DNA of 64,000 nt, from the IMG/VR virus record IMGVR_UViG_3300037067_017589, one strand, 5' to 3'. Positions 4,206-62,884 of the stretch are shown piece by piece. This DNA is from an uncultured virus (IMG/VR IMGVR_UViG_3300037067_017589). Lineage: Duplodnaviria > Heunggongvirae > Uroviricota > Caudoviricetes. Each line of letters opens with the position of its first letter. Position 1 is the first letter of the stretch. The notes beneath the pieces are model-generated. The model ran no database searches. It saw only the letters and a list, made by a program, of their open reading frames with translations, and was not told where the DNA came from. Both the position numbers and the translations under genes were made by a program.

Positions 4206-4526
4206 AAGGATTATATATGGAATATAAATATTATGCTGAATTTAAAACTGATCAAATAATTAGAGAAAATTATTTTCCTGATTTTTCTTTTAAAGGAATT
4301 ATGGTAGAGGTTGGAGCAGCAACTCCAGATTTTATTAGTATGTCCAAACATTTTAGAGAATCTGGATGGCGTTGCATTTGTATTGATCCAAATCCACACT
4401 ATGTACAAATGCATTTAAATTGTGGAAATGAAATATATAAATATGCTTGTTCGTTTGAAAATAAAGATAATGTTGATTTTCAAGTTGTACATTTTTCTGA
4501 TAATTATAATAATAATATAATTACTG

Positions 4527-4558
4527 ATTATAGTTATTCTTCATTATAGTTATTCTTC
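4527..4558 (+). repeat. Perfect 16-bp tandem duplication ATTATAGTTATTCTTC x2
   Basis: Directly visible at 4527-4542 and 4543-4558; creates the premature TAG. Confidence 0.95.
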
Positions 4559-4581
4559 TTTAAATATAAAAGACAATTATC

Positions 4582-4891
4582 GTGAACTACCCTCACCTAA
4601 AGGTAAGGGCTTCTTGGACCCCCATGGTTCCAACATATTGAGAATTATTCTCAATAGCCTGTCCCAGGCAATAAATGTTTAGTAACTAAAATTTTGATTC
4701 ATTTTTCTAAAAAGATCACATCATATATTTGAATCAAGCCTCAAAGAGGCTTTGTGCTAAAAAATAGCACCATGCGATCTCCTATTTAGAATATATTAAG
4801 ATATTCCTAGAAATAAAGAAAATTTCTAAAGAAAAAAGTTTAACAACAATTCATCCCTCCCCTAAAGGAAAGGGACTTCTTGTTGAAAAGG
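4582..4891 (-). mobile_element. Non-autonomous IS200/IS605-type element (PATE/MITE), copy 1, 310 bp
   Basis: On the minus strand: TTTAA | CCTTTTCAACAAGAAGTCCCTTTCCTTTAGGGGAGGG (left-end hairpin) ... GAAGCCCTTACCTTTAGGTGAGGGTAGTTCAC (right-end hairpin). No target duplication; near-identical to copies 2 and 3. Confidence 0.9.
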
Positions 4892-5263
4892 TTAAATATG
4901 GAAAAGTTACAATAAATTCACTACCTATTAAAAACATTAAAGTAAATGTAAGAACTTTAAATACAATACTATCTGAATTAAATATTGATCATATAGATTT
5001 TCTTAGTATTGATACAGAGGGATGGGAATTAGAAGTAATGAAAGGATTTGATGTAAATAAATATACACCAAAGATTATTTTACTTGAAAATTGGACTCAC
5101 ACACCAACTTATACCACTTATATGAAATCCATAGATTATAAATTAAATAAAAAATTACGATACAATTATATGTTTACGAAAAATATTTAAATTTTACGGT
5201 TTTCTTGTTAAATTTTTTTAAACTGATATATTATTTAGTTAGATTTTATAAATCGGAGTTTTA

Positions 5264-6244
5264 ATGAAAAAAGCGTGTATAACAGGAATTACTGGGCAAA
5301 CAGGTTCATACCTAGCTGATATTTTACTTGAAAAAGGTTATGAAGTTTATGGTTTAATTAGACGAAGCAGTTCTTTTAATACTGAAAGAATTAATCATAT
5401 TTATAATGATTTGCATTTATCTTTTGGTGATTTATCTGATTATGGTTCTATAGCTAATTGGGTTCGCCAAGTTCAACCAGATGAATTTTATAACATGGGT
5501 GCAATGTCACATGTGCGTGTAAGTTTTGATATTCCAGAATATACAATGGATATTGGTGCTACTGGAGTTGTTAGATGTTTAGAAGCTTTATGTAATTTTA
5601 GTCCTCATACAAAATTTGTACAAGCATCAACTTCTGAATTGTTTGGGAATTCTCCACCTCCACAAAGCGAAACAACACCATTTCATCCAAGATCTCCATA
5701 TGGAGCTGCAAAAATAGCTGGTTATTGGTCAGTTATTAATTATAGAGAATCAGAAAAACTTTTTGCAGCAAATTCAATCAGTTTTAACCACGAAAGTATG
5801 CGTAGGGGAGAAACTTTTGTTACAAGAAAAATTACCAGAGCAGCAGCTAGAATAAAAATAGGATTACAAGATAAATTAATTCTTGGTAATCTAGATTCTA
5901 AACGAGATTGGAATCATGCTAAGGATGTGTCTAACGCATTGTGGATGATGGTTAATTCTCCTAAGGCAGATGATTGGGTAGTAGCTTCTGGAGAAATGCA
6001 TTCTGTTAAAGAGTTTTTAGAGATTGTTTTTGATATATTAAATTTAGATTATAATAAATATATTGAATTTGATTCTAGATATATTAGACCAACTGAAGTA
6101 GATGCTTTATGTGGAGACTCTACAAAAATTCGTACAATTCTTGGATGGAAACCAAAATATACATTTAAACAATTAGTTGAAGAAATGGTTGATAATGATT
6201 TAAAATTAGCTTATAAAGAAAAACTATTATTAAATAATTTATAA
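5264..6244 (+). CDS. gmd: GDP-mannose 4,6-dehydratase
   Basis: ITGITGQTGSYL, AMSHVRVSF, QASTSELFG, SPYGAAK, FNHES.RRGETFVTRKITR, GNLDSKRDW. Confidence 0.95.
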   Translation: MKKACITGITGQTGSYLADILLEKGYEVYGLIRRSSSFNTERINHIYNDLHLSFGDLSDYGSIANWVRQVQPDEFYNMGAMSHVRVSFDIPEYTMDIGATGVVRCLEALCNFSPHTKFVQASTSELFGNSPPPQSETTPFHPRSPYGAAKIAGYWSVINYRESEKLFAANSISFNHESMRRGETFVTRKITRAAARIKIGLQDKLILGNLDSKRDWNHAKDVSNALWMMVNSPKADDWVVASGEMHSVKEFLEIVFDILNLDYNKYIEFDSRYIRPTEVDALCGDSTKIRTILGWKPKYTFKQLVEEMVDNDLKLAYKEKLLLNNL

Positions 6245-8813: not shown

Positions 8814-9101
8814 ATGAAAGAATTATTACCTACAATTACAGATTATGCTCGTGTTATAAAATGCATAAGTAAAGCAATTTCTGACAATAGATGGTCAGAT
8901 AAACAATTATCACGAATACAAAAAGGTGAAGTTCAAAGTATATTGGCTAATATATATTTTGGTAATATTTTAATAGAAAATTTATTAGAATTAAAAAATC
9001 AAGGAATTGATTGTAAAATTAGTGAATATATAGATGATGTAGTGAACTACCCTCACCTAAAGGTAAGGGTTTCTTGGATCCCCATGGTTCCAACATATTG
9101 A
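8814..9101 (+). pseudogene. Hypothetical protein interrupted by element copy 2
   Basis: The last ~19 residues (VNYPHLKVRVSW...) are read from the inserted element. A stop-free frame resumes at 9383-9646. Confidence 0.6.
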
Positions 9102-9242
9102 GGATTATCCTCAATAGCCTGTCCCAGGCAATAAATGTTTAATAACTAAAATTTTGATTCATTTTTCTAAAAAGATCACATCATATATTTGAATCAAGCC
9201 TCAAAGAGGCTTTGTGCTAAAAAATAGCACCATGCGATCTCC
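9042..9242 (-). ncRNA. Putative ~200-nt structured RNA (omega-RNA-like scaffold) within the element; equivalents in copies 1 and 3
   Basis: Stems AGATC(G/A)CAT/ATGTGATCT, GTGCTA/TAGCAC, AAGCCTC/GAGGCTT, GCCTG/CAGGC, ATTGAG(A/G)A/T(T/C)CTCAAT, TTGGA/TCCAA and the right-end hairpin. Variation between copies is compensatory or G-U on the minus strand. Confidence 0.55.
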
Positions 9243-9350
9243 TATTTAGAATATATCAAGATATTCCTAAAATAAAGAAAATTTCTAAAGAAAAAAGTTT
9301 AACAACAATTCATCCCTCCCCTAAAGGAAAGGGATTTCTTGTTGAAAAGG
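9042..9350 (-). mobile_element. Non-autonomous IS200/IS605-type element, copy 2, 309 bp
   Basis: Same ends as copy 1; flanked by TTAAA (TTTAA on minus) at 9351-9355. Confidence 0.9.
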
Positions 9351-9638
9351 TTAAAAATGATGTATTTTTACTAGAAAATTAAAATATATGGTCATATATT
9401 ATTATATATTATAAGGAAGAAACAATAAAAGATGTTACAAAGGAAGAAAAAAAAAATATAAGTTATGAACAACGTTTAATAATATTAAAGCAATTAGATG
9501 AAATGATAAAAACATCAGATAAAACAAATATAAAAGAAAGCTCACTAAAATTAAAAATCTTAAAAAAGCAGTATCTATTTTCTATAAAATATTATTACTT
9601 ATTAAAAGATTTCCACTATTTAAAAAAAAATAAAAGAG

Positions 9639-9645
9639 TGATATA
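9639..9645 (+). promoter_or_regulatory. TGATATA promoter-like motif 9 nt before the ATG (class A)
   Basis: Same motif and same 9-nt gap before the ATGs at 29621, 30711 and 55613. Confidence 0.55.
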
Positions 9646-9654
9646 GAGATTAAT

Positions 9655-11028
9655 ATGAGTACAGAATCAAAAATTGAAGATATTAAAAAGGAAGAAATTA
9701 TGAATAATTTAGAGGATAAACCAAAGGTAGATCCTGATAAGCTAGCAGCTCTTAAAGCGAGAGCTGCTCAAAAAAAATTAGAAGAATCACAAGTAATACA
9801 AGAAGAGGAATCTATGCCACCACGTATAGTTGAAGAAAGAAAAGTTAGTCTTCGTTTTGGTATTGTTGGTTCTGGACAGGCTGGTAGCCGTTTAGCAGAA
9901 CAATTTAGTTCATTAGGTTATCCGGCTGTTGTTTTTAATACAGCTCCACAAGATCTTGAAGATATTAAAGTACCAGAAGAAAATAAACTTTTATTAGATT
10001 TTGGTCTTGGTGGATGTGCGAAAGATCTTTCCTTAGGTAAAGATGCTGCTGATGCTTATAGAAATTCTATTAGTGAACTAATTCAACGTAAATTATCAGA
10101 TGTTCAAGTGTTTATTTTTTGTACATCTCTTGGTGGTGGTTCTGGTGCTGGTTCTGTAGAAGTTGTTGTTGATATTTTAGCTCAACTTGGAAAGCCTGTT
10201 GTTGTTCTTACGATTCTTCCAAAGGCTAGTGAAGATGCTCAATTAAAACATAATGCTTGGCAGACTTTAAGTAAGTTTACTAAGATGTTTAATGAACATA
10301 AAATTGATAATATTATCACGGTAGATAATGCTAAAATTGAATCACTATATAGTGATGTAGGTCCTTTTAATTTCTTTCCAGTATCAAATAAAGCAATTGT
10401 AGAACCTTTACATGCATTTAATGTAATGAGTCGTAGAAAGGATGAGGGTATTAAAGTTCTAGATTCTACTGAATTTGGAAAATTATTTGTTGATGGTAAA
10501 GGTTTTACAGTATATGGTCAAATGGCAGTTAGTGATTATGAAAATGAATTAGCAATTGCTACAGCTATTGTAGAATCATTAAAGGGTAATTTATTAGCAT
10601 CTGGTTTTAATATTAAACAAGCTCGTTATGCAGGTTTTATGCTTGTAGCCCCAGAACGTATTTGGAATAAAATTCCAAGTTCTAGTTTGGATTATGCACA
10701 ACAAATGATTAATGATGTGTGTGATAGTCCATTGGCAATCTTTTATGGTATTTATAAAGAAGAATCTTCTGAAGATTTTATTAAAGTTTATAGCATGTTT
10801 TCAGGATTAGGATTACCAACAGAACGTATTGATCAATTAAAAGAAGAAGCTCAATTAAAAATGGGTGTTGCACATAAAAAAGATGAACAACGTCAAATGA
10901 CAATGAAAGTAGATGTAGGAGAAGAAACTGTAAATAAAGTTGATGAGATTAAAAGAAAAATTGAACAAAAAACATCTTCTTTCAATAAATTACATAGTGG
11001 AGCTATTATAGATCGTAGAAAAAAATAA
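9655..11028 (+). CDS. Tubulin/FtsZ-family GTPase (PhuZ/TubZ-like)
   Basis: GIVGSGQAGSRLA (T1 loop), GGCAKD..LG, signature SLGGGSGAG, VDNAK, and a charged C-terminal tail. Confidence 0.85.
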   Translation: MSTESKIEDIKKEEIMNNLEDKPKVDPDKLAALKARAAQKKLEESQVIQEEESMPPRIVEERKVSLRFGIVGSGQAGSRLAEQFSSLGYPAVVFNTAPQDLEDIKVPEENKLLLDFGLGGCAKDLSLGKDAADAYRNSISELIQRKLSDVQVFIFCTSLGGGSGAGSVEVVVDILAQLGKPVVVLTILPKASEDAQLKHNAWQTLSKFTKMFNEHKIDNIITVDNAKIESLYSDVGPFNFFPVSNKAIVEPLHAFNVMSRRKDEGIKVLDSTEFGKLFVDGKGFTVYGQMAVSDYENELAIATAIVESLKGNLLASGFNIKQARYAGFMLVAPERIWNKIPSSSLDYAQQMINDVCDSPLAIFYGIYKEESSEDFIKVYSMFSGLGLPTERIDQLKEEAQLKMGVAHKKDEQRQMTMKVDVGEETVNKVDEIKRKIEQKTSSFNKLHSGAIIDRRKK

Positions 11029-11044
11029 TTAAAATAATAATGTG

Positions 11045-11080
11045 AATCAGCTGATATTGAATAATATCAGCTGATTTTTT
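11045..11080 (+). terminator. Intrinsic terminator
   Basis: 14-bp stem AATCAGCTGATATT/AATATCAGCTGATT followed by a T-tract, just after the tubulin stop. Confidence 0.8.
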
Positions 11081-11136
11081 ATTTTATAAAACTACATAAA
11101 GTAATATGTAGTATATGTCAACTACTAAATTTATAG

Positions 11137-11446
11137 GTGAACTACCCTCACCTAAAGGTAAGGGCTTCTTGGATCGCCATGGTTCCAACATATTGAGAAT
11201 TATCCTCAATAGCCTGTCCCAGGCAATAAATGTTTAGTAACTAAAATTTTGATTCATTTTTCTAAAAAGATCACATCATATATTTGAATCAAGCCTCAAA
11301 GAGGCTTTGTGCTAAAAAATAGCACCATGTGATCTCCTATTTAGAATATATCAAGAAATTCCTAGAAATAAAGAAAATTTCTAAAGAAAAAAGTTTAACA
11401 ACAATTCATCCCTCTCCTAAAGGAAAGGGACTTCTTGTTGAAAAGG
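11137..11446 (-). mobile_element. Non-autonomous IS200/IS605-type element, copy 3, 310 bp (intergenic)
   Basis: Same ends; flanked by TTAAA at 11447-11451. Confidence 0.9.
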
Positions 11447-11505
11447 TTAAATATTTTAAATAATAATATTAAATATAATTCACTAGCAGATATAGAATCA
11501 AATAT

Positions 11506-12978
11506 ATGAATAAAATAATAGTATTCGATAATTCTTGTAAATTATTTTCTAATGATGCTGAATTATATCAACAATTAAATAAATTATTATCATTTACTAT
11601 TCAAGGTGCAGAATTTTCACAAGCATATAAAGGGCATATTAATGAATTTGGTGATTTTGTATCATGGGATGGTAGAAGATATTTAATGTCTTCTACTGGA
11701 AAATTTCCAATTGGTTTATTACAAAGAGTATTAAAATTCTTTGAAGAAAAAAAAATAGAAGTTGAAATTGTTGATAATAAAAATTCAAAGACACCAATAA
11801 AAGAAATAGATATTTCAAAAAAGCTAAAGGATATTAATATGGTTCCACGACCATATCAAATAAATATTGCTAATGAAGCTGTTAAACATGATCGTGGTAT
11901 TATTAAAGCAGCTACAGGATGTGGCAAAACTTTATGTACAACATTAATTACAGCTAAATTTGGTAAACCTACATTAATTATGGTAATTGGAACTGATTTA
12001 TTATATCAAACACATAATGTGTTTTCTAAAATTTTCGATGAAGAAATTGGTATTATAGGTGATGGACATTGTAACATTAAAAATATTAATATAGCAAGTG
12101 TTTGGACAATTTCTAGCGCATTGGGTATTATGGAAAAATGTTCATTGGATGATTCTGATGAAAAAGAAAAAGAAGTTTCGTCAGAAAAATTTCAAGATAT
12201 AAAGAAAATGCTTCTTTCTGCAAGGGTAGTTATTATTGATGAAGCACATGTTTGTGCAGCCCCTACATTAGTAGGAATTTCTCAAAATATTAAAGCTGAA
12301 CATGTTTATGGAATGTCTGCTTCACCTTGGAGAGATGATAATCAAGATATGTTAATAGAAGCTTTTCTTGGTAAAAGAATTATTGATTTATCTGCAAAAG
12401 ATTTAATTAAACAAGGATATTTAGTTAAGCCAATTATTCGTTTTCTTGTACCAAAATATTATCCATACAAAAGTGGTGTGTATCAAAAAATATATGCTAA
12501 ATATATTACTGAAAATGAACAACGCAATGGAATGATTGTTACTGGTGCTATAAAAATGATTGAACAAGGATTAGTTCCATTAGTATTATTTAATAGTATT
12601 AAACATGGTGATATTTTATATAAACAATTAAAAGATAAAGTTCCAACCGCACTATTAAGTGGAAAGCATCCTTCAAAAGTTCGTGAAAAAATAAAAAAAG
12701 ATATTGAAAATGGAAAAATAAAGTGTATAATAGCAAGTAAGATTTTTGATTGGGGTTTAGATTTACCAATTTTGTCTGGTTTAATAATAGGTAGTGCTGG
12801 AAAATCTTCTGTAAGAGCACTACAAAGAATCGGTCGAGTAATTCGTCCTTATCCTGGAAAGAAATTTGCAGCAATCATTGACTTTGCAGATCAAGCGCCG
12901 TATCTTTGTGAACATGCAAAAAAAAGAAAAGAAATATATGAAACTGAATTTGAAGTACAGTGGCCATTGAAAGATTAA
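11506..12978 (+). CDS. Superfamily 2 DExH helicase (UvsW/XPB-like)
   Basis: PRPYQ, ATGCGKT, IIDEAH, GMSASP.R, GLDLP, QRIGRVIR. Confidence 0.9.
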   Translation: MNKIIVFDNSCKLFSNDAELYQQLNKLLSFTIQGAEFSQAYKGHINEFGDFVSWDGRRYLMSSTGKFPIGLLQRVLKFFEEKKIEVEIVDNKNSKTPIKEIDISKKLKDINMVPRPYQINIANEAVKHDRGIIKAATGCGKTLCTTLITAKFGKPTLIMVIGTDLLYQTHNVFSKIFDEEIGIIGDGHCNIKNINIASVWTISSALGIMEKCSLDDSDEKEKEVSSEKFQDIKKMLLSARVVIIDEAHVCAAPTLVGISQNIKAEHVYGMSASPWRDDNQDMLIEAFLGKRIIDLSAKDLIKQGYLVKPIIRFLVPKYYPYKSGVYQKIYAKYITENEQRNGMIVTGAIKMIEQGLVPLVLFNSIKHGDILYKQLKDKVPTALLSGKHPSKVREKIKKDIENGKIKCIIASKIFDWGLDLPILSGLIIGSAGKSSVRALQRIGRVIRPYPGKKFAAIIDFADQAPYLCEHAKKRKEIYETEFEVQWPLKD

Positions 12979-13034
12979 ATTGTTCTTGATAATTTTTTAA
13001 GCATACTGCATACTTAAATATTCGGGAGTTTATT

Positions 13035-13643
13035 ATGGTTAAACAAGCAGGAAAATTAAGCGGATTAAAACATGATGGCAGACCAAATGCCTATTGGAGA
13101 AAATTCAAGGAACGGCTTGATTCGTATTCTGATATTCCGGTAGTAAATTGGAAAGAAGATCAATTTCTTGGACATATATTAAAAAGATATAAAGATCAAA
13201 TGGGAATTGATTTTTCTCTTTCGTTTAGTGGGCCTCCAACAAAATGTAAAGAAATTTATTGTCTTCGAAGAATGATATTAGCATTAGGAACTGAAGATTC
13301 TACTAGTATTAAAAATTATATTGATTGGATGTTTGATTGTATAATAATTCCACAAAAAGTTACAATTTCAAGCATTGCTTATTTTTTCACAACTGCTTTT
13401 ATTCTTAAATTTAAGAAAGAGAGTAGAAAAAATAATAGAATTACAAGAGCAACAATTTTACCAGAAAAATATAAAGTTATTGTTTCTAATTTAGAATTGG
13501 ATGTAAATACATATGGTGATTTAGCTTTTGCAAAAGTTGCAATTCAAGATGATCCAAATAATAATGTTTATGATGTTTATGGTAAATTATTTACAGAATT
13601 AAAAACTATTGGTTTTGATGAATCTGTATTAAATATTATTTAA
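13035..13643 (+). CDS. Hypothetical protein in the replication cluster
   Basis: 202-aa ORF with GGGAG RBS; no recognised motif. Confidence 0.6.
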   Translation: MVKQAGKLSGLKHDGRPNAYWRKFKERLDSYSDIPVVNWKEDQFLGHILKRYKDQMGIDFSLSFSGPPTKCKEIYCLRRMILALGTEDSTSIKNYIDWMFDCIIIPQKVTISSIAYFFTTAFILKFKKESRKNNRITRATILPEKYKVIVSNLELDVNTYGDLAFAKVAIQDDPNNNVYDVYGKLFTELKTIGFDESVLNII

Positions 13644-18075: not shown

Positions 18076-21000
18076 ATGGTTACTTTTGAAGATGTTATGA
18101 ATGTAAGTACTGAAGAATATTTTAATGGAAATCAATTTAGTATTGATGCCTTTAATAAAAAATATGCACAAGTTATAAATGGACAAAAAGAAACTTATGT
18201 TCAATCACTCAAAAGAGTTTGTGATTATATAGCTTCTTGTGAATCAACAGAAGAATTAAAAAAGTTTTGGTCTGATAGATGGTTTGATGAAATTTATAAT
18301 GATTGGTGGCATCCTGCAGGTTCTATTATGCAGGGTGCCTATTCTGGTAAATCTATTTCTATGTCTAATTGTTCCACTGTAAGTTTAGGCGGACAAGAAG
18401 ATACAAATTGGGATAACTTAGAATCTATTATAAAGAATACATCGTATACTGTTGCAAAAATGGCCGCATATCGCCAAGGCCTTGGGGTAGATTTTTCCAA
18501 GCTACGTCCAAGGGGATGTGAAGTAAGAAATTCATCAAATGAAAGCCAAGGAGTTATTCATTGGATGAAATTTATTGATTCTATTGGTAATTATATTGGA
18601 CAAAAGGGAAGAATTCCAGCAATGCTATTCTCTCTTTCTATTAACCATCCTGATGTTGAAGAATTTATTAAAGTAAAAAGTGACCATACAATTATTCAAA
18701 ATGCAAACATTTCAGTACAAACAAATGATGCTTTTTATAAAGCAGTAGATGAAGATGCTGATTGGGAAATGTCTTTTACAATTCCTAGTACAAAAAAAGG
18801 TGATCGTGTATATGTAGATATACATTCTACTGATATGGATTGTAAAAAGGATGAACAAGGAAGATATTATAGATTAGCTAAAAAAGATCGTTCAGAAGAA
18901 GTTGTAAAAAAAGTAGTAAAAGCTAGATATTTATTAGAATTAATTGCAAAGAATGCCATCTCACATGGAGAACCAGGTATCCAGCAAATTGATATGGCTA
19001 AATACTGGTCAAATAGTGATTATTTAACAGATCCTACTGGAGAATATTGCCCAAAAGTGATTAGTTCTAATGCGTGTTCAGAACAATATCTATCTAGAGA
19101 TAGTGTTTGTGTATTATCTTCTATTAATGCTGGACGTTTTAGTACGGAAAAAGATCTTTATACACAAGAATTAAAAACCATTTCTTATTCTGTTAATAGA
19201 TTTTTAGATAATGTAAATGAAATGGAATTGATTGGACAAACCTATTCAACTCCTCATCAGAGATTAGCTATTGAAAAACTTAGAAGGACAGGAGCTGGCA
19301 TTACAAATATTGCAGCTTGGTTCTTTAAGCAAAATTTAGAATATGGTTCAGAACAAGCTAATGAAGCATTATTTGATTTTAATAGATTATATAATTTTTA
19401 TTTATATGAATCATCTATTTCTCTTGGTAAAGAAAAAGGTTCATTTGGATTGTTTGTAAAAGAACAATATGAACAATCTCCATTCATTAAAAATATGATT
19501 GAGCAAGGTCTTGTATTTGAAACTATGCGTAATTGTACGTGTTCTAGCATTGCTCCAACTGGATGTATTGAAGAAAATACTAGAATTATTACAGATCGTG
19601 GGTTAGTTAAAATAAAAGATATTGTTAATGAGTATCCAGAAGAAAAACAATTTAGTTATAATGTTCCTGAAACATTTATTTCACATGAAAATGGTACTAG
19701 TAAAGTATTATCATTTTATAATAATGGAGAAGTTAATGGATATGTAATTGAGTTTGAAGATGGTCGTGAAATTAAAGTTTCAGAGACTCATAGAATTCGC
19801 ATACTTAAAGATGGGAAATATGATTGGGAATATGCTCCTAATTTAAAGATTGGTGATATTGCTATTCTTTGTAAAGGATCTGATAATGAACCAAAACAAT
19901 ATGTAAAATTAAATACTGACATATATAGTAATCATTCTAGTTCAATAAAAAATTTAAAATATCCAGTAGAATTGACTGAAGAGTTAGCAGAAATAATAGG
20001 ATTATTTACGGGTGATGGTAGTTTAAATTTTAGATGTACAGATGATAAAGCAAGTGCAATTAGATTTACAGTTTTTGATGAAGATATAGACCTTGTTGAA
20101 AAAATACAAACTTTAATTAAAAAATTATTTAATTGTGATGTTTCTATTGTTAAAACTAATAATGAAAAAACATTTACAGTAAGTATTTATTCTGTAAATG
20201 TTTGTAATTATTTTATTAAAAATGGATTTAGTAAAAAAGATTTTCCATCACGTGGAGTTGAAAATAATTATATTTATCATATTCCAGAATATATTTTCAA
20301 ATCTCCCAAATCAGTAATTTGTGCTTATTTAAGAGGTTTGTTTGAAGCAGATGGAACTTCTCATAGTTCTCATATTTCATTAAGTTCAAAACATAAAAAT
20401 ATTATGCAAGAGGTTCAAGAATTATTAACATATGTTGGTATACAATCATTTATAAATTTTAAAAAAAATATAAACAATATAGCTTGGTATAATCTTGATA
20501 TAAGATTTACATCTGATAAAAATTTATTTAAGAAAAAAATTGGATTTTTAAGTAATAGAAAAAATAACAAATTAAAAGTTTTTAAAAAAGATCAAGAAAA
20601 AATTTATATATTATCTTATATTTTAAAACAGTATCGTAAACAAATGCGTAATAAAAAATGCAATTTGTATAATAATATTAATTTAGTATTAAATAGACAT
20701 AAAGGGTTATTAACTCATATTAATAGAATTACTTTAAATAAAATTTATGATTTTATTAAATTTCCATTTAATTTTGATAATTATTTTAATTTAAAGATTA
20801 AAAATATTACCAGGGAAATAATAAAAACATATGATATTGAAGTAGACAATCCTGAACATACATATGTAACTGCAAATGGTGTTATAAATCATAATACTCT
20901 ATCTTTAATGTTTAGAGATTATATTATTTCAACTGGAGTGGAACCAGCTATTGGTATGTATTATTGGAAACGTACTAAAATTTCTGGGTTTTATGAATAT

Positions 21001-21999
21001 TATTTTTGTGTTCCAAATGTTGTTAGAACTACTTTTGAAAAAGCTGGATATTCAATTCCTATTAATTCTGATACTATTAAAGATACTTGGGATGGATCTA
21101 ATGGAATTCCAATTGCAAAATTTATTAATGAAAATGCTGAAAAAATTGGTATTAAATTTAAGAAATCTAGTGATATCAAACCTTTGGATAAATTAAATTT
21201 AATGTCAAAATTAATGAAATATGTTGATTCATCTATTTCGGTAACATATTCTTTATCAGAAAATTCTTCTTGGCAAGATATTTATAATCTTATTGTTCAA
21301 GCAAATAAAAAAGGTGTAAAGAGTCTTGCTGCTTATAAAGATAAGAAGATGTATGGAATTATTTCATATATTCCGTTTAAGCAATTAGCTTTTGAACTTA
21401 AAAATGATGGAATTAAAATTCATAATAGTAATTTTACCGAAGAAGAAGCTAAAGAACTTAATTTAATCGTATCAGATAGTGTAAAATCATTAAACGCTAC
21501 ACCAAGACAAAAAGAATTACCATGTGATGTTTATCAAGTAAAGGTACATGGTAAACAGTATATTATGGTAGTTGGTTTACAAAACAATATGCCATATGAA
21601 ATGTTTGGTGGATTAATTCCTGAAACAATGGCATTTAAGTTTAAGACCAAGAAGGGAACAATGACAAAAGAAGGTCATAGTAAATATAAATTAACTATAG
21701 ATGATTCTATTTCATTTAATGATTTTGGAGAATATTTTACAGCATCTGAACAAATGTTATTTAGAATGGTATCTATTTCATTAAGACATTCTATTCCTAT
21801 TAAATATATTGTAGATCAATTGGGGAAAGCAGCTGAGGATGTTTCTGATTTAGCAGCAGCTACTTCTAGAGTATTGAAGAAATACATTATAGATGGTGAA
21901 AGTGCTGGAGGTGAATGTCCAAGTTGTGGTAGAAAAGAATTAATATATATGGATGGGTGTATATCTTGTACATGTGGATGGAGTAAGGGTTGTGGTTGA
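18076..21999 (+). CDS. nrdJ: Class II (adenosylcobalamin-type) ribonucleotide reductase with intein
   Basis: SNC, GEPG, catalytic NACSE, CVLSSIN, SIAPTG|T, and a C-terminal domain ending in a Cys-rich ribbon (CPSC...CISCTCGWSKGCG). No nrdB in the window. Confidence 0.8.
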   Translation: MVTFEDVMNVSTEEYFNGNQFSIDAFNKKYAQVINGQKETYVQSLKRVCDYIASCESTEELKKFWSDRWFDEIYNDWWHPAGSIMQGAYSGKSISMSNCSTVSLGGQEDTNWDNLESIIKNTSYTVAKMAAYRQGLGVDFSKLRPRGCEVRNSSNESQGVIHWMKFIDSIGNYIGQKGRIPAMLFSLSINHPDVEEFIKVKSDHTIIQNANISVQTNDAFYKAVDEDADWEMSFTIPSTKKGDRVYVDIHSTDMDCKKDEQGRYYRLAKKDRSEEVVKKVVKARYLLELIAKNAISHGEPGIQQIDMAKYWSNSDYLTDPTGEYCPKVISSNACSEQYLSRDSVCVLSSINAGRFSTEKDLYTQELKTISYSVNRFLDNVNEMELIGQTYSTPHQRLAIEKLRRTGAGITNIAAWFFKQNLEYGSEQANEALFDFNRLYNFYLYESSISLGKEKGSFGLFVKEQYEQSPFIKNMIEQGLVFETMRNCTCSSIAPTGCIEENTRIITDRGLVKIKDIVNEYPEEKQFSYNVPETFISHENGTSKVLSFYNNGEVNGYVIEFEDGREIKVSETHRIRILKDGKYDWEYAPNLKIGDIAILCKGSDNEPKQYVKLNTDIYSNHSSSIKNLKYPVELTEELAEIIGLFTGDGSLNFRCTDDKASAIRFTVFDEDIDLVEKIQTLIKKLFNCDVSIVKTNNEKTFTVSIYSVNVCNYFIKNGFSKKDFPSRGVENNYIYHIPEYIFKSPKSVICAYLRGLFEADGTSHSSHISLSSKHKNIMQEVQELLTYVGIQSFINFKKNINNIAWYNLDIRFTSDKNLFKKKIGFLSNRKNNKLKVFKKDQEKIYILSYILKQYRKQMRNKKCNLYNNINLVLNRHKGLLTHINRITLNKIYDFIKFPFNFDNYFNLKIKNITREIIKTYDIEVDNPEHTYVTANGVINHNTLSLMFRDYIISTGVEPAIGMYYWKRTKISGFYEYYFCVPNVVRTTFEKAGYSIPINSDTIKDTWDGSNGIPIAKFINENAEKIGIKFKKSSDIKPLDKLNLMSKLMKYVDSSISVTYSLSENSSWQDIYNLIVQANKKGVKSLAAYKDKKMYGIISYIPFKQLAFELKNDGIKIHNSNFTEEEAKELNLIVSDSVKSLNATPRQKELPCDVYQVKVHGKQYIMVVGLQNNMPYEMFGGLIPETMAFKFKTKKGTMTKEGHSKYKLTIDDSISFNDFGEYFTASEQMLFRMVSISLRHSIPIKYIVDQLGKAAEDVSDLAAATSRVLKKYIIDGESAGGECPSCGRKELIYMDGCISCTCGWSKGCG
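19564..20895 (+). mobile_element. Intein, 444 aa, with a LAGLIDADG homing endonuclease
   Basis: Starts CIEENTRI after APTG and ends GVINHN before Thr; motifs LAEIIGLFTGDG and YLRGLFEADG. Confidence 0.9.
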
Positions 22000-22348: not shown

Positions 22349-22399
22349 TTAAAATTTGTGTGATATATAAATAAATTGATAATTATAAGGAGCAATATA

Positions 22400-22633
22400 A
22401 TGAAAACAACTAAAGTAGATGTGGAAGAATTAAAGGGTATTATTGAAGCACGTACTAAGGGTATTGAAACTGCTACAGCCGCTGAAAAAACAGTAAAGGA
22501 TGCAAGAATTGCTGAACTTGAATATAAACTTCAATTACAACAATTTTTCCTTGAGCGTGGTTTAGACCCGCGTTGTAATGTTGATATTAATACTGGTGTT
22601 ATTACTTGGCCAGAAGAAGAAGTATCTGTTTAA
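22400..22633 (+). CDS. Small hypothetical protein
   Basis: AAGGAG RBS before ATG 22400; its TAA stop is part of the TTTAA target of element copy 4. Confidence 0.65.
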   Translation: MKTTKVDVEELKGIIEARTKGIETATAAEKTVKDARIAELEYKLQLQQFFLERGLDPRCNVDINTGVITWPEEEVSV

Positions 22634-22895
22634 CCTTTTTCAACAATAAATCCCTTTCCTTTAGGAGAAGGATGAATTGTTGTTAAACTTTTTTCTTTAT
22701 TTTAGGAATCTCTTGATATATTCTGAATAGAAGATCACATGGTGCTATTTTTTAGCACAAAGATTCTTAGAAAAACGAATTAAAATTTTAATTATTAAAC
22801 ATTTATTGCCTGGGACAAGCTATTGAGGATGATCCTCAATATGTTGGAACCATGAGGATCCAAAAACCCCTTACTTTTAGGTGAGGGTAGTTCAC
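22634..22895 (+). mobile_element. Non-autonomous IS200/IS605-type element, copy 4, 262 bp, degenerate, opposite orientation
   Basis: TTTAA | CCTTTTTCAACAATAAATCCCTTTCCTTTAGG ... TTTAGGTGAGGGTAGTTCAC; internal deletions relative to copies 1-3. Confidence 0.9.
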
Positions 22896-29620: not shown

Positions 29621-30697
29621 ATGCAATTATTTTTAGATGCAAATGCTCATTTACCAATTCATCCAAAAGCTATTGATGCTTTTGTTCAATTTAATAAATC
29701 AATAGCAGGGCATGGAAACGCTATGGCTTCATCTCGTCCTGGACGAGAAGCAGCTTCTATAATCGAAGAATCGAGAGAAAAAATAGCAAAACTTATTGGA
29801 GCTAAAAATTCTAATCAAATAATTTTTACATCTACATGTACTCAAGCTTGTGAATGGGCTTTGGAAATTCTAAAATCTAGAAATTATAATAAAGTCTATT
29901 ATTCAACAATTGAACATCCAGCGGTATCAATAAAATCTACAGAATTATTTGGTAATAATATATTAATTGTATCTAAAAATGGTGAAATTAATTGTACTTT
30001 TAATCCAGAACCTAATTCTTCAATGATTTGTATTTATGTTAATAATGAAATTGGAACTATTCAAAAAATATCAGATATAAAAGTTCCATTTTTCAGTGAT
30101 ATGAGTCAGGCATTGGGAAAAATTCCTATTAAAGTATCTAATATAAATAATCTTAAATTAGCAACATTTGGTGCTCATAAATTTGGTGGTCCAGTTGGAG
30201 TTGGAATTTTATATGTGCAAGATACTGATTGGTGGAAAGAATTTGGATCTGGAAGTAGGTATTATTTAGATCGTTCTGGAACACCTGATGCTGGATTGAT
30301 ATTAGCATCCGCTGTAGCATTAGAAGAAGCTATTAAAACTATATTATTTCGTTATGAAAAAGCTATATGTTTTAGTTCAGTATTAGAAAATGGACTTGAG
30401 GAATTTGGATTAAAAGTTATTGCTAAAAATTATAATAAAATACCTTATACATCATTTATAAAAATTGGTAAAAAAGCAGGTCCATATCTAATGTCTCAAT
30501 TAGAATCAGATGGTATTTTTATAGGTCTTGGATCTGCTTGTGGAGCTATGCATACAGCTTCTAGTCCTATAATGTCTGCTTTAGGTGAAGGTGGTTTAGC
30601 ACATGATTATATTAGAATTTCTCAATGGGGAAATTATGGCGAAGAAGAAGCTAAATATGTTTTAAAAGCATTAAAAAAATATATTCCAAAACATTGA
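29621..30697 (+). CDS. Cysteine desulfurase (IscS/NifS-like, class V PLP enzyme)
   Basis: FLDANA, IEHPAV, VNNEIGTIQ, DMSQALGK, GAHKFGGP.GVG and catalytic GSAC. Confidence 0.85.
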   Translation: MQLFLDANAHLPIHPKAIDAFVQFNKSIAGHGNAMASSRPGREAASIIEESREKIAKLIGAKNSNQIIFTSTCTQACEWALEILKSRNYNKVYYSTIEHPAVSIKSTELFGNNILIVSKNGEINCTFNPEPNSSMICIYVNNEIGTIQKISDIKVPFFSDMSQALGKIPIKVSNINNLKLATFGAHKFGGPVGVGILYVQDTDWWKEFGSGSRYYLDRSGTPDAGLILASAVALEEAIKTILFRYEKAICFSSVLENGLEEFGLKVIAKNYNKIPYTSFIKIGKKAGPYLMSQLESDGIFIGLGSACGAMHTASSPIMSALGEGGLAHDYIRISQWGNYGEEEAKYVLKALKKYIPKH

Positions 30698-30710
30698 TAT
30701 ATTAATAATC

Positions 30711-31025
30711 ATGGGTAGATATGTTAAAAAAGGAAATGGTACTAAAAAACCTAAAAAATTCTTTTGTGAAATTTGCAATGAATTAGATAAATCTACATTA
30801 CAATATCATCATATAATACCAAGAACAGATGATGAATGTAAGGATGATTGGACTAATGTATGTGTAATATGTGCAAATTGTCACAATAAAGTTCATGAAG
30901 AAAAAATTAAGATTTTTGGAATATTACCATCTACTAATTTACCATATCAAAGAATAGTTGTATATGAAAAAAATGGTATAAGTAATATTCCGGGTATACA
31001 AGAAATTTATTATAAAAAGGTTTAA
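30711..31025 (+). CDS. HNH endonuclease
   Basis: CEIC...HHIIPR......DWTN...ICANCHNKVH. Confidence 0.85.
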   Translation: MGRYVKKGNGTKKPKKFFCEICNELDKSTLQYHHIIPRTDDECKDDWTNVCVICANCHNKVHEEKIKIFGILPSTNLPYQRIVVYEKNGISNIPGIQEIYYKKV

Positions 31026-33435: not shown

Positions 33436-34581
33436 ATGAAAAAATATACAATAGAATATTTTCAAGATTTGGCATTGAAAAAGAATGGTAAATGTTTGTC
33501 TAAAGAATATATAAATGGTAAAACAAAAATAGAATTTCAATGTTTTTGTGGACATGTTTGGATAGCTGAACCAAGACATATTATAGAAGGTCGTTGGTGT
33601 CCAAAATGTGGTTGTCAAAAAGGAAGAAAATATGAAGTTGATCATGAGTTTTTTTCTAGTGATACTGAAAAAAGTTTTTACGTAGCTGGATTTTTAGCAG
33701 CTGATGGATGGAAAACTAGAAAGAGTAGTAGTTATGGTATTGGTTTGCAACTTTCTTCTAAAGATATAAATCATTTGAATAATATAAAATCTATATTGAA
33801 ATGTAATTCTCCTTTACAATATATAAAACGTAGTGGTTATATATGCAATAATTACAAAATATCAAATACAGAAGCTTATTCTTTTATTTTTCATTCTGAA
33901 AAATGTTACAAAGATTTAGAACGTTTTAGTGTTGTTGAAAATAAAACCTATATAATGCGTTTTCCAGAATGGTTAAAAAATCATCCATTAGTTTATCATT
34001 ACATGAGAGGTTATATTGATGGGGATGGTTGTTTTTCAATTGGTAAAAATAAAGGGCAAGACCCTCATATTTCATTTGCAATGAAAGGAACGAAAGAGTT
34101 TTTAGAAGTTTTTCATGAAGTATTATTGATTAATAATATTTGTAATAAAAATACAGAGCGTAGTGAATTAAAATATAAAGATGGTAAGAAATATTTAGCT
34201 TTTGATAATTTAAGATATAATGGGAATATAATAATATCAAAGATGTATGATTTTCTTTATAAAGAAGCTACTATATTTTTACCAAGAAAAGAAGAAATTG
34301 CAAAGAAGGCAAAAGAATATAGGGTTATTGGTGTTAGAAACAGAAAATCTAGAGTTAATACTTTAGGTTTTACCAAAGAAATTTTATTAGAAAAATTGAA
34401 AGAATTAGGTTCTGGGAAATCTGTAGCTAAAAAATATAATTGCACACCTGCTGCTATTTCATGGTGGGTAAGTTATTTGGGAGTTTCTAAGAATGAATAT
34501 AACAAAGCTATCGGAGTTTTAGACAAAGAAGAAGTAGGTGAACTACCCTACCCTAACCTAAAGGTAAGGGCTTCTTGTTGA
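33436..34581 (+). CDS. Free-standing LAGLIDADG homing endonuclease with N-terminal Zn ribbon and C-terminal HTH; 3' end altered by element copy 5
   Basis: C.CGH.W...WCPKC, YVAGFLAADGW and YMRGYIDGDGC. Confidence 0.85.
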   Translation: MKKYTIEYFQDLALKKNGKCLSKEYINGKTKIEFQCFCGHVWIAEPRHIIEGRWCPKCGCQKGRKYEVDHEFFSSDTEKSFYVAGFLAADGWKTRKSSSYGIGLQLSSKDINHLNNIKSILKCNSPLQYIKRSGYICNNYKISNTEAYSFIFHSEKCYKDLERFSVVENKTYIMRFPEWLKNHPLVYHYMRGYIDGDGCFSIGKNKGQDPHISFAMKGTKEFLEVFHEVLLINNICNKNTERSELKYKDGKKYLAFDNLRYNGNIIISKMYDFLYKEATIFLPRKEEIAKKAKEYRVIGVRNRKSRVNTLGFTKEILLEKLKELGSGKSVAKKYNCTPAAISWWVSYLGVSKNEYNKAIGVLDKEEVGELPYPNLKVRASC

Positions 34582-34587
34582 AAAAGG
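34538..34587 (-). mobile_element. Minimal 50-bp derivative (copy 5): both element ends fused over one hairpin
   Basis: GTGAACTACCCTACCCTAACCTAAAGGTAAGGGCTTCTTG joined directly to TTGAAAAAGG, then TTAAA. Confidence 0.85.
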
Positions 34588-54579: not shown

Positions 54580-54644
54580 TATTTTACACATATAGGAACG
54601 TTAATGGTCAGTATTCTATACATAAGGTTTAATCGAGGTGTTAA

Positions 54645-55583
54645 ATGAGTGACTTTTTAGAACAAATTAATAATAGAATTGATGGGTCATACAATAATGC
54701 TAGGGGTATTGTTAGAGGAAGTGGTGGAAACGCTCAGGGCTTTAGTGATTTAGCTGTAATACCACCTCCAACAGGAAGTGCTGTACGCCAAGCTCAAATT
54801 GCAAATGAACGTGATGCTATTGCAAAAAGAAATATGGTTCGTTGGTTTCTTCCAGAGACTGGTATTGTTGAAATGTATATAAATCCTAAAAATATAGAAT
54901 ATTCATATAAGAAACATATAACCTCACCAGTAAGAACACGTGGTGGGTATTCAATACAATATTATGGAGAAGATTTAGGACAAATTGTTATTCGTGGTAC
55001 AACAGGTTCTTCTGGTGTTGAGGGTATAAATGTTCTTGAAGATATTTATAGAAACGAACAAGTTTCCATGGATGCTTTAGCAATGGCTGCTGAAGCTGCT
55101 AGAAAAAATAATTCTAGTAATTATGCAAATGTTGATCTTGGTTTTGGAAATTTTATAGCAGAAGGTATTGATGATATGTTTGATACAGTTGATTCTGTTA
55201 TAAATACTGGAAGTGCAGATCCGGCAATACAACAACCTACATTAGCATCAATAGCATTTCAAACTGAGATGTATTGGTCTGGTTGGGTATTTAGAGGGTT
55301 TTTTATAAGTTTTGGAGTTACTGAAAGTTCTGATAATATTGGATTATTTGATTATTCAATTAATTTTACAGTTACACAAAAGCGTGGTTTACGATTAAAC
55401 TATATGCCTTGGCATAGAAGTGCTGTTCATGGTCCATCATATACAGATCCATTATTTGGTAGACCATATTCATTTGGAACTTTGAGAGATCCTTCATCAA
55501 AGACAAGTTATTCAGCATCTCCTATAATAAAAAGAGTAGTAGCTACTGTTGATGCTGCTTTGACAAGTTATCGTCCGATTTAA
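54645..55583 (+). CDS. Baseplate / tail-tube initiator-like protein
   Basis: MYINP..I.Y..K....RT.GG...QY.GE.L..I.I.GTTG and FRGFF..F...ES....FDY...F pattern; follows the tape measure gene. Confidence 0.6.
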   Translation: MSDFLEQINNRIDGSYNNARGIVRGSGGNAQGFSDLAVIPPPTGSAVRQAQIANERDAIAKRNMVRWFLPETGIVEMYINPKNIEYSYKKHITSPVRTRGGYSIQYYGEDLGQIVIRGTTGSSGVEGINVLEDIYRNEQVSMDALAMAAEAARKNNSSNYANVDLGFGNFIAEGIDDMFDTVDSVINTGSADPAIQQPTLASIAFQTEMYWSGWVFRGFFISFGVTESSDNIGLFDYSINFTVTQKRGLRLNYMPWHRSAVHGPSYTDPLFGRPYSFGTLRDPSSKTSYSASPIIKRVVATVDAALTSYRPI

Positions 55584-55612
55584 TTTAGGTTAAACCTGAT
55601 ATATGGTAAAGT

Positions 55613-58600
55613 ATGAATTTCTTATCTTCACTTGGTAATATTATAAACGATCAATTTGGAATTGGCGAAAATACAAAAGGTACTGTTAAAGTTTTAGGCG
55701 ATAAATCTGCTGAAAGGTCTTATATAGAAAATGGTTTTATACGAAATTTAAGACCAAGAAAAAGATCTATATTATTTCAACAACCAGATATTTATGTTGT
55801 AGTAAAAAAAAGGATGTTTTCTTCTTTAGTAAATAATTCTAGATTAGATTATTTAGAAAAAAAAGAAAGAATACTAATTGCTGCATCAAAAAAATTATTT
55901 CAAAATAAATGCAAATTAATATCAGCTTATGAAAAACTTACTAAAATTGAAAAATTAGCAATTGATAGTGGTAGTTTTAATACATTTTTAGGACCTTCAT
56001 TTATTAATTTAATAGATAGTTTAGATACATTGGGTGGAGCTACTGGTTTATTTTCACTTGATGCTAGTACAAAATCAGCTATAGAAACTCTTAGAAAAGT
56101 TTTATCTTATTCTATGCCAACTGATTTTACTAGTTGGACAACTAATGATTGGGATGCTTCTTTTTCTGATGAAGTTGGAGAAGGTCCAGGAACAATGGAA
56201 TTAACTATTGTTTCTAGTATTAGTACTAAAACATCTGTAGAATGGGGAGGAGGTAGTGCTAATTTAACACTTGAAGATCCTTATAATTTATTAACAATTA
56301 CTGAACAAGATATTGATCAGGCTTTAACTGATGTTACAAATGTATACAGAGAAGGTGGATTTTTTAAATTTACCAAAACAGAATTAGAAAATACAATAAG
56401 AGATTTACAAGGAGAGTTAGCAGTTGAAAGAAGGTCTAGGAATGCTAGCAATATTACATTTAAAATTAGTCCAGGAACAGTTGTTTCTAAAAGAGTAAGA
56501 GCGATTCTTGATGATGAAAGTACTGATATAAGATTTCAATATTCTACTGGTTTATCAGGAGAAGATGGAAGTGTAGGAGAAGTTTTATCAAGTGTTTTTG
56601 TTTCTATTGGTAATACAATTTCAGGTGGCAATGTAGAAATTGAACCTGAATTTTTAGAAGGATATAATTCAATTAATGTAAGTATAAATAATCAATTAAC
56701 AAAATCTGAACAAAAGAAATTTGTACAAATTATAGGTAATATTTTTACTCTATTAGGATATAATCAAACAAGTAAAGCCGAATTAAATCAAGCATCTGCA
56801 GAAATTAATTATGCACGTAATAGAATGAGATTATTTTTTAATGGGAAATATGTAATTCAACCTATGGATGTAATTACAATTTTCATGTCAAGTAGGACTA
56901 GTGAAGATGATCGTTTACCTGGCGGATTTCAAAAACAACAAAATGAAAGTGGATTTTCTTTAATAAATAGATTTGATACTATATTAAAAAATATAAATAA
57001 TACTGTAGGGGATATGCAAACAAATGGCAAACTTGAAACTATAATGTCATTTGAAGATATAGAGCGTTCCAGTATGGTTGGTGCTGGTTTTCCAAAATGG
57101 TTATGGAGACAATTTAAACAAGATATTACATGTCAACCTACAGGACCTTGTATTTTTACAGGTCTTGTTGGAGCAATGGGACAAGGTGTGGTTGGAACGT
57201 GGTCAGATGGTAAGTGGACAGTTTCAGTAACTTGTAATGATAATTCTGCTTATTTTTCTCAAGGGTATATAAATTTTCAACCATCTGCTGATGTTCTTAA
57301 TGCTAGTATTTACGATCCACTAACTCCATTTGATGTTAGTTTAGATGCTTCAACTGGAACTGCTTTAACAGATACGACTGAAGGAGACTTACCTCAATTA
57401 TTACCAGAAAATAAAATGTTAATTCAAACAGGATTATTAACTTATGGAAGTGGACCAGAAAAAGGTAATTCTGTTACAGAAGAAAATTTAAAACAACAAA
57501 CAAGTGAAATTACTTTTGGTAAATTTAGAAATGTACTTCATGCACCAAATGGATTAGTTTATAGATGGAAACAAGGAATTCAAACTTTAACTTGGCTTTC
57601 AAAACCAGAAAACTCTACAGAAGAAAATAGAGCAGTATTATTAACACCACAACCATTTGCCGGTCAAGATGTTATGAATGTAATATCTATGTTAGTTACT
57701 GGTCAACCATATAACTATGATACTTTCTTAAAAGCTGCAATTGCAAATGGTAATTCATTAGGGTCAAATGATAATATTAGTAATATTACAGCTGCAACTA
57801 CTTATATTCAAGGTTTATTAAATGATATTGAAAAAACTAATTGTATTTGGGGTAATTTTATACCTTATAAAAAATTAGTTATGAATCCATCTATTAACAC
57901 TTTAATTACACAAACCAGATTAGATGCTGTTTCGAACAATGAACAATTAACAAAATTACTTAGAGAAAGAGCTTCTGTTGAAGATGAAATAATGATGTTA
58001 GCTGATGGTTTTAATGTAGATTTAAATAGTCTTTTCACTAAAAATGAAGCTGGACAATCTGTATTATCAAATTCTTCCACTAATACAATAGAAACAGATG
58101 CAGCAACTGATGCTAAAAGAAGACTTGATAGTATTGATGAACAAATAAATAATCTTCAAGGATATTTTGATAAAAAATATAAAGAATCAAACAATCAAGA
58201 AATTGGTTTAACGATTATGGGAACAGATGTAAATACTAATTTAACATCTGTTAATGATGCTAGTTCAAGTAATGCTCAAAAACAAAGAGATGAATTAGAA
58301 TTAAGAAGAAATTTATTTAGATTTACAGCTAGAAGATTTTGGAAAGTAAAAGCTAATGAAGATCAAAATTTATTTATAGTAGATGATCAGTATGATAAAA
58401 ATTTTGATTTAATGGCATTTGAAAGAAAGATTGGAAGTACTATTAAATTATTTGATAGTCCATATTCATCTGTTGCAGATCAGATTAATAATGTTAAAAA
58501 ATTACTTGGTTTTGAAGTCTTTGCAAATACACAAGGACATATAGAAGCACGTCCACCTGGATATAATAAAGTACCAAGTTCTGTTTTTTATAAGATGTTT

Positions 58601-60760: not shown

Positions 60761-60827
60761 AAATTAATAATTTTCCAATATAATATATAAACAGTTAAAT
60801 AGTACAGTTGAATAGTTAGGTGATAAT

Positions 60828-62876: not shown

Positions 62877-62884
62877 GATAATAT

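Follow-up and report, generated by a model that had tools for sequence, protein, structure and literature searches.

A small dispersed element in a phage genome, very probably a non-autonomous member of the IS200/IS605 family, with a predicted omegaRNA scaffold derived from tnpB

A repeat of about 310 nt, dispersed through a phage genome and without any protein-coding gene, raises the question of what it is and whether the RNA that it may produce has any use. We have analyzed such a repeat in a stretch of 64,000 nucleotides (the window from here on) of an uncultured virus of the Caudoviricetes (IMG/VR record IMGVR_UViG_3300037067_017589). An initial annotation, made from the sequence alone, had described one of its copies (copy 2 in Table 1) as a self-contained guide-RNA cassette, composed of a phage promoter, a structured RNA of some 200 nt and a variable flank that would serve as guide for a TnpB-like protein. 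Our analysis indicates that the element is almost certainly a PATE (palindrome-associated transposable element), i.e. a non-autonomous member of the insertion sequence (IS) family IS200/IS605, with an omegaRNA module derived from tnpB.

The repeat is present four times in the window, as annotated (a 25-mer taken from the element matched four positions with up to three mismatches, none being expected, and alignment agreed), and copies 1 to 3 are 97-98% identical to each other. Read on the element strand, every copy starts with the foot CCTTTTCAACAAGAA, a hairpin (CCCTTTCC-TTTA-GGGGAGGG) and then ATGAATTG, and finishes with AAGAA, a second hairpin (CCCTTACC-TTTA-GGTGAGGG) and TAGTTCAC. In all four cases both ends are subterminal imperfect hairpins and not terminal inverted repeats. 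The left end (LE) is always preceded by TTTAA in the window, as had been noticed before, and in a wider set of 13 insertion sites this pentamer was found before 10 of the 11 that preserve the LE, with ATTAA before the remaining one. At copy 4, the TAA of the motif is at the same time the stop codon of the open reading frame (ORF) 22376-22633.

The nearest record, G001, is a viral contig of 106 kb (estimated to be 25% complete) that matches the window at 98.9% from 4892 to 53897 and at 99.8% from 54628 to 64000, and we will refer to it as the sister phage. The site of copy 1 is empty there, with CCATGTTTAA joined directly to GATAAG (over a longer right side, to GATAAGTG). In the window it is filled: CCATATTTAA is followed by the element, from CCTTTTCAAC to GTAGTTCAC, and then by GATAAT, the right flank being GATAATTG. 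Comparison of the two alleles places the insertion exactly 3' of TTTAA, without target duplication. Given this mode of insertion and the subterminal hairpins, the element is of the IS200/IS605 type. The earlier proposal of a derivative of this family thus holds on its ends, its target and a scarless empty site, and so does that of TTTAA as a target similar to a transposon-adjacent motif (TAM). Around copy 1 the window and G001 are only about 70-90% identical, out to roughly position 5500, so that the empty allele has to be considered a diverged homologue and not a fresh excision product. The possibility that copy 1 itself was a mosaic boundary between both genomes was rejected, the boundary being located near 5500-5600.

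In the sister phage an intact ORF of 179 aa, coding for an FkbM-type methyltransferase (PF05050, E 7.5e-15), runs across the empty site. Its two halves in the window (4217-4549 and 5038-5190) gave no Pfam match, so that copy 1 interrupts a gene. A separate observation at this locus is a 16-nt tandem duplication at 4527-4558 (GAAGAATAACTATAAT twice, on the element strand), which begins 24 nt past the right end (RE) of copy 1, is not found in the G001 allele and frameshifts the already interrupted methyltransferase gene. It is located near the zone where a flank-guided TnpB would cut, and this may be a coincidence. We also compared the contigs assembled from four DNA runs with the window between 4300 and 11700. 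These contigs break at the repeats, and no precise excision joint for copies 1 to 3 was found among the joints listed. One low-depth replacement joint appeared near copy 3 (10983 to 11451, with 22 other letters), and a joint from 9170 to 11305 most likely corresponds to a shorter copy spread over two copies.

The only protein similarity detected inside the element is located at its 3' end; otherwise, the coding content of copy 2 is limited to frames of 21-31 aa and to the overlapping tail of the flanking ORF. We scanned viral contigs for the RE pattern and obtained 16 loci. L034, in an unrelated phage contig, holds a complete PATE copy (92% identity), and L031, located on that contig too, corresponds to a tnpB 3' end whose final 98 nt share 96% identity with the final 98 nt of the element. 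This stretch reads RNIYCLGQAIEDNLQYVGTMGIQEALTFR followed by a stop codon that falls in the loop region of the RE hairpin. Besides, a tblastn search with the intact TnpB of L039 found its last 30 codons in the four window copies (E 2e-10 to 4e-9). Because of the identity to L031 and of these matches, the statement in the initial annotation that no tnpB remnant exists in the element was wrong: all four copies end with the last 30 codons of tnpB. The TnpB of L039 can be aligned with that of ISDra2 (PDB 8bf8/8exa/8h1j, E 7e-31) as far as the RuvC-III motif DRDENAA, which immediately precedes the part that the element has retained.

The retained part was then examined as RNA, in an alignment of the last 112 nt of 17 sequences (five PATE copies and 12 tnpB ends). 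RNAalifold gave four hairpins, with 30 pairs in four helices and 97.2% of the cells paired. Compensatory changes were found in 18 of the 30 pairs, a value equalled by none of 500 shuffles, and they include the RE hairpin, which covaries over the 17 sequences. Controls with slid partners were only 28-44% paired, a comparison flattered by the structure having been taken from the same alignment, which does not affect the double changes. Owing to 34 G-U cells, the fold can belong only to the element strand, the opposite one being excluded. In hairpin B the PATE copies themselves vary in a compensatory way (A-U, G-U and G-C). The pairing variants that had been listed for the window copies (GAGAA/TTCTC, GAGGA/TCCTC and GAGGA/TTCTC) are real, and GATCGCAT and GATCACAT do both pair with ATGTGATC. 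The hairpins are intact in copies 1 to 3 and in L055. A covariance model of the scaffold (R1) scored copy 2, one of its training sequences, at 124.8 bits and found no further scaffold copies over the window; outside the training set it matched a tnpB element of G001 (IS-A, 39.6 bits) and very short solo-hairpin elements. Two candidates for a pseudoknot like the one of ISDra2, AAC(-97..-95)/GUU(-6..-4) and GAA(-31..-29)/UUC(-5..-3), are invariant, which leaves no variation to judge the pairing by, and the AAC of the first doubles as an Asn codon. Altogether, this comparison shows that the last 98 nt are a tnpB 3' end plus the RE, whose four covarying hairpins correspond, as predicted from the alignment, to the omegaRNA scaffold of that tnpB lineage. 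The view of the initial annotation that by its origin the 3' part of the element is an omegaRNA scaffold of a TnpB, terminating at the RE, was thus supported. So was its proposal that each insertion lies beside a distinct potential guide (the four 20-nt flanks quoted were correct), and that any TnpB would have to act in trans.

Relatives of this TnpB, with identities of 57-100%, are encoded at 12 viral loci, and several of these lie in contigs of 180-460 kb. L042 has both a Y1 tnpA (PF01797, E 3e-39) and a tnpB, L039 and L045 have only tnpB (intact in L039), and in L046 and L048 the tnpB gene is internally deleted. These five and IS-A have in common the left end CAAGAA-hairpin-ATGAATTG and the right end hairpin-TAGTTCAC. 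A tnpB with the same RE, which had been suggested as a check, exists in relatives such as L031, L039 and L042. In the sister phage there are three tnpB elements, two of them complete and with related ends. IS-A (L015 6910-8225, minus strand) codes for 382 aa with three Pfam domains, is located 3' of TTTAA and has the right end GGGGTAGTTCAC. IS-B (L015, approximately 12040-13420, minus strand) codes for 431 aa; its hairpin is not the same, and it finishes with GGTGGTTGAC. A tnpB of the cognate type is the third, and its LE, 5' untranslated region (UTR) and first 21 codons are present before the contig end cuts it (L011 1-163, minus strand). IS-A and IS-B are located in a sugar-modification region that is unlike the left 4.5 kb of the window. 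A search for full-length cognate elements by the pattern of their 5' UTR found only two known deleted copies, and the TnpB domain PF07282 was found in none of the four viral records matched by the 5'-module pattern of the element, only one of which has PATE copies.

Apart from the phage lineage, the RE terminus CCTTTAGG..AGGGTAGTTCAC is common to IS elements of very diverse bacteria and archaea (63 loci in genome contigs, L126-L188), among them relatives of Methanothrix, Parachlamydiaceae, Betaproteobacteria and Gemmatimonadales. None of these 63 loci has the hairpin-A motif of the phage lineage, the upstream scaffolds being quite different, and for this reason they are uninformative about the host.

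In the 5' part of the element, the motif TGATATA is located where it had been annotated (9258-9252, minus strand), nine nucleotides before GGAGATCGCAT, which starts at 9242, and from there to the TTCAC ending at 9042 there are 201 nt. The annotated change to TAATATA in copy 1 was also found, and most PATE copies keep the motif. The claim that the same spacing precedes the ATG of four phage genes had to be reduced to three exact cases (9639-9657, 30695-30713 and 55597-55615, plus strand), with 0.87 expected by chance and 7 of 100 shuffles reaching three. Their ATGs, at 9655, 30711 and 55613, all start long ORFs (a tubulin-like protein, an HNH protein and a protein of 1715 aa). With this modest statistical support, the pattern suggests promoters for leaderless or near-leaderless mRNAs in the phage. 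The motif itself is real, as the initial annotation held, but its origin as a captured phage promoter need not be assumed, since a similar motif, TTCGATATATA, is found in the full-length relatives (L039, L042 and IS-A), where it lies upstream of tnpA or tnpB and as far from the LE hairpin as in the PATE. Judging from this position, TGATATA may be the promoter of the transposon itself.

Between the motif and the scaffold there is a module of about 100 nt. The whole segment 9246-9022 (minus strand) is structured, as had been claimed (-71.2 kcal/mol, z -5.65; opposite strand -62.9, z -5.06). For the nested stems of the 5' module, comparative support was lacking: over nine distinct variants its covariation was reached by 163 of 500 shuffles. 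Stem P1 is 100% paired in the nine variants, through wobble changes that work only on the element strand and one double change. The pseudoknot TTGATTCA/TGAATCAA proposed in the initial annotation did not stand, with no compensatory changes and only breaking ones (4 of 54 cells). A pattern search found the module in 19 of 76 hits, all of them PATEs, in a sample biased by the pattern lying inside the module. No homologue outside other PATE copies was found by blastn-short against 31 loci with full-length or partial IS relatives, and the folds of native tnpB 3' regions gave no obvious equivalent. Rfam gave no family at the gathering score over the whole window, and in E-value mode on 8980-9400 the best match was an unrelated model at chance level (E 0.068). 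An IStron (group I intron plus IS200/IS605) was also considered and rejected, with no group I match and the window below every gathering score. As a separate observation, a terminator scan flagged the LE hairpin and its T-rich run (9312-9335, minus strand), which might prevent transcription from entering the element, or may have been flagged for no other reason than its shape.

The way in which such an element could work can be outlined as follows. A Y1 TnpA provided in trans would move it as single-stranded DNA. Transcription from the internal TGATATA would produce an RNA of about 200 nt, covering the scaffold and continuing into the right flank for about 16 nt. A TnpB of the cognate lineage, again in trans, would load this RNA and cut the empty allele, made of TTTAA plus the flank sequence, and recombinational repair would restore or copy the element, i.e. 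homing. We give even chances to this statement as a whole, with the PATE and its RNA moved and used in trans as guide for homing. As to whether the RNA is currently used as a guide, the sequences lead us to a yes or a no with equal readiness. The simpler reading is that of a selfish non-autonomous transposon.

In favour of a guide in use are the intact scaffold hairpins of copies 1 to 3 and L055, the pairing kept where copies differ, the deletion that spared the scaffold-equivalent part, and the tnpB elements of the sister phage, two complete and one of the cognate type at the contig end. Several observations weigh against it. None of the 19 sequencing runs listed is of RNA. The 64-kb window has neither tnpB nor tnpA, and no tnpA was found in the window plus G001 (the best match, of 15.5 bits, was below the cut-off and contained stops). 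A frameshift is present in the only cognate-type tnpB that we saw sharing a contig with a PATE copy, and two further ones on that contig are internally deleted. The TnpB of IS-A has no more than 34% identity to the cognate lineage, and three hairpins, not four, make up its scaffold. The retained 98 nt are shorter than the 116-nt scaffold of ISDra2, and the partner candidate for the pseudoknot has A instead of G at -98 in the PATE. Copy 1, L105 and L079 have lost the TG of the promoter-like motif, and a promoter scan for two consensus hexamers does not list the TGATATA site. The divergence of the G001 allele described above means that the empty site does not document a very recent event. Finally, visibly decayed copies are found at 5 of the 13 insertion sites. 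Copy 4 is decayed as well: two internal deletions have removed 14 and 34 nt, and its hairpin A contains mismatches.

The best surviving alternative takes these signs at face value. The copies would be inert relics, decaying fossils of past transposition whose omegaRNA part survives since the insertions are young, with no TnpB in the phage making use of it. The decay at 5 of 13 sites, the 48 nt lost by copy 4 and its hairpin mismatches, the promoter-like motif damaged in copy 1, the window devoid of tnpB and tnpA and the frameshifted or deleted state of the co-resident cognate genes all fit this explanation, and the 97-98% identity of copies 1 to 3 implies little time for selection to show. Yet the differences in hairpin B among these three copies all keep the pairing, and the deletion that made the PATE kept exactly the part equivalent to the scaffold, when 50-nt solo-hairpin elements persist with far less; both points argue toward use. 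Besides, a tnpB of the cognate type does begin at the end of the sister record. We regard the relic as a reasonable candidate that we would not favour.

A more ambitious version of the proposal would be that huge phages have an IS605 lineage of their own in circulation, with protein-less copies as dispersed, self-promoted guide-RNA genes for a phage-borne TnpB that drive RNA-guided homing or marker exclusion among co-infecting relatives. The conserved 5' module would then be an accessory RNA domain of a new kind, serving stability, processing or loading and absent from the parental omegaRNA. We find this extension unlikely. Slightly more doubtful still is a domesticated weapon, in which the dispersed copies would be a guide repertoire used with the phage's own TnpB against co-infecting relatives without the inserts (marker exclusion), to the benefit of the phage. 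Occupancy of the copy 1 site does differ between close relatives, the empty allele retains TTTAA and the target with one mismatch in the first 16 nt, the sister phage has tnpB genes, and other homing-type genes are found in the window (intein LAGLIDADG, free LAGLIDADG and HNH). A table in a recent review also includes transposon non-restorative homing into co-infecting phages (PMC13565253, as listed there). However, such a weapon is indistinguishable from ordinary selfish homing, copy 1 disrupts a phage gene and in this looks parasitic, and the copies decay. The weakest alternative, that the ~200-nt RNA or its 5' module has nothing to do with TnpB and serves the phage as a regulatory or antisense RNA, can point to copies 1 to 3 being antisense to all neighbouring genes (a transcript would run antisense into them), to a 5' module without homologue in full-length IS copies and to the strand-specific wobbles of P1, and is nonetheless very improbable, with the module confined to PATEs, its covariation matched by shuffles, most of it lost from copy 4 and no Rfam match.

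Compared with known systems, the element combines familiar parts in an unusual place. The TnpB-omegaRNA of ISDra2 was reportedly described by Karvelis et al. in 2021. In common with ISDra2 as presented in the structural study, the guide RNA would overlap the 3' end of tnpB and end at the RE, has a UUUA tetraloop at -20..-17, and its scaffold-coding part corresponds to the dispensable C-terminal tail that the 116-nt functional scaffold of ISDra2 overlaps (Nakagawa et al., 2023, PMC10097598). The same source gives guides of about 16 nt for TnpB. In contrast, there are here four local hairpins where ISDra2, in the structure considered, has stems 1-4 with a long-range stem 2; the scaffold has 98 nt instead of 116, the TAM is TTTAA and not TTGAT, and the pseudoknot of ISDra2 is here only a candidate. 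The PATEs of Geobacillus stearothermophilus are described as elements that "often encode omegaRNAs" and need a TnpB provided in trans by another IS (Meers et al., 2023, PMC10055086). As far as that description goes, they are similarly protein-less, with LE and RE common to tnpB elements, and they differ in being located on a bacterial chromosome and not in a huge phage, in the TAM (TTTAA here) and in the module of about 100 nt that here separates the scaffold from the promoter-like motif. The IS608/IS605 elements with Y1 TnpA likewise have subterminal hairpins, insert 3' of a short target without duplication and leave a scarless empty site, in the account of the same paper (PMC10055086); our element lacks tnpA, and the nearest relative found to bear it (L042) is on another phage contig. 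Regarding the marker exclusion by homing endonucleases of T-even phages, the likeness, in the terms used by the 2026 review, is that a co-infecting relative without the element would have its allele cut and converted (PMC13565253). Here recognition would be by an RNA guide plus TAM, with the nuclease encoded elsewhere, and it is only a proposal made from sequence.

The positions of the features are collected in Table 1.

Table 1. Copies of the element, parts of copy 2 and a related mini-element in the window
Feature	Position	Strand	Remarks
PATE copy 1	4582-4891	-	310 nt; TAM TTTAA at 4892-4896; potential guide 4562-4581; interrupts FkbM-type methyltransferase gene
PATE copy 2	9042-9350	-	309 nt; the copy of the initial annotation; replaces the last codons of ORF 8814-9101
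PATE copy 3	11137-11446	-	310 nt; intergenic, between tubulin-like gene and UvsW-like helicase gene
PATE copy 4	22634-22895	+	262 nt; older, decayed
Left end of copy 2	9306-9350	-	same LE type as in the deleted tnpB element L046
TTTAA target/TAM of copy 2	9351-9355	-	abuts the left end; seen in the sequence
Extended -10-like promoter motif TGATATA	9252-9258	-	start predicted near 9242
5' module	9146-9246	-	stems P1-P3 and proposed pseudoknot; AGGAG-ATG similar to a Shine-Dalgarno site, with mini-ORF of 10 codons
OmegaRNA scaffold remnant	9042-9139	-	last 30 tnpB codons and RE hairpin; four hairpins; UUUA loop at -20..-17
Right flank as would-be guide	9022-9041	-	assigned by position only, after the published TnpB mechanism
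Solo-hairpin mini-element	34538-34587	-	50 nt; 5' foot of LE joined to RE hairpin and TTCAC; TTTAA before; 23.6 bits with model R1

The window is AT-rich (G+C 20-34% in 2-kb bins), and nearly all its long ORFs are on the plus strand. Among their products are sugar-modification enzymes, a protein of the tubulin/FtsZ family, helicases, a ribonucleotide reductase carrying a LAGLIDADG insert, endonucleases of the HNH and LAGLIDADG types and a protein similar to a tail-tube initiator, a gene content that points to a large phage as the source. Insertion sequences are uncommon in the genomes of huge phages. A blastn search of 8960-9460 against GenBank phages gave no match. Genes of the homing or selfish type are represented in the window by an intein-like LAGLIDADG domain inside the ribonucleotide reductase ORF (18076-21999), a small HNH endonuclease (30711-31025) and a free-standing LAGLIDADG ORF (33436-34581). 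The tubulin/FtsZ-family gene (9655-11028) is flanked by copies 2 and 3 in the same orientation; a segment of 2.4 kb (9042-11446), delimited by the LE of copy 3 and the RE of copy 2, could in principle move as a composite IS200/IS605 unit.

The solo-hairpin element of the window sits within the 3' end of this free-standing LAGLIDADG ORF. Others of 50 nt are found at L011 7496-7545 and L012 2691-2740 (both on the minus strand), ending in TAGTTCAC and with TTTAA before each. Their 5' feet differ from one another and match different parental LE types. Their sequence suggests an origin by deletion between the LE and RE hairpins, which are near-identical, comparable to that of solo long terminal repeats.

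PATE-encoded omegaRNAs for a TnpB acting in trans are already published (Meers et al., 2023, PMC10055086). With the concept already in print, the result obtained here is confirmatory and not surprising, and what is unusual is the host. A limited literature search found no description of PATEs in phage genomes; tnpB itself is frequently phage-encoded according to a landfill-virome study, within the material of that study (PMC12607003). The case is a clean instance, found in nature, of an IS200/IS605 element that encodes no protein and has a guide-RNA scaffold derived from tnpB, in the genomes of huge phages. A filled site can be compared with its empty counterpart, the TAM is defined, full-length cognate relatives exist and the covariation is strong. 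The compact scaffold of 98 nt and the accompanying TnpB lineage of roughly 375 aa, with its TTTAA TAM, may be of interest for the mining of small RNA-guided nucleases. Should the RNA be produced and put to use, co-infection by phages would offer a natural setting to RNA-guided homing, until now only a possibility in the table of the 2026 review, where transposon homing into co-infecting phages has a category (Table 1 of PMC13565253, as given there).

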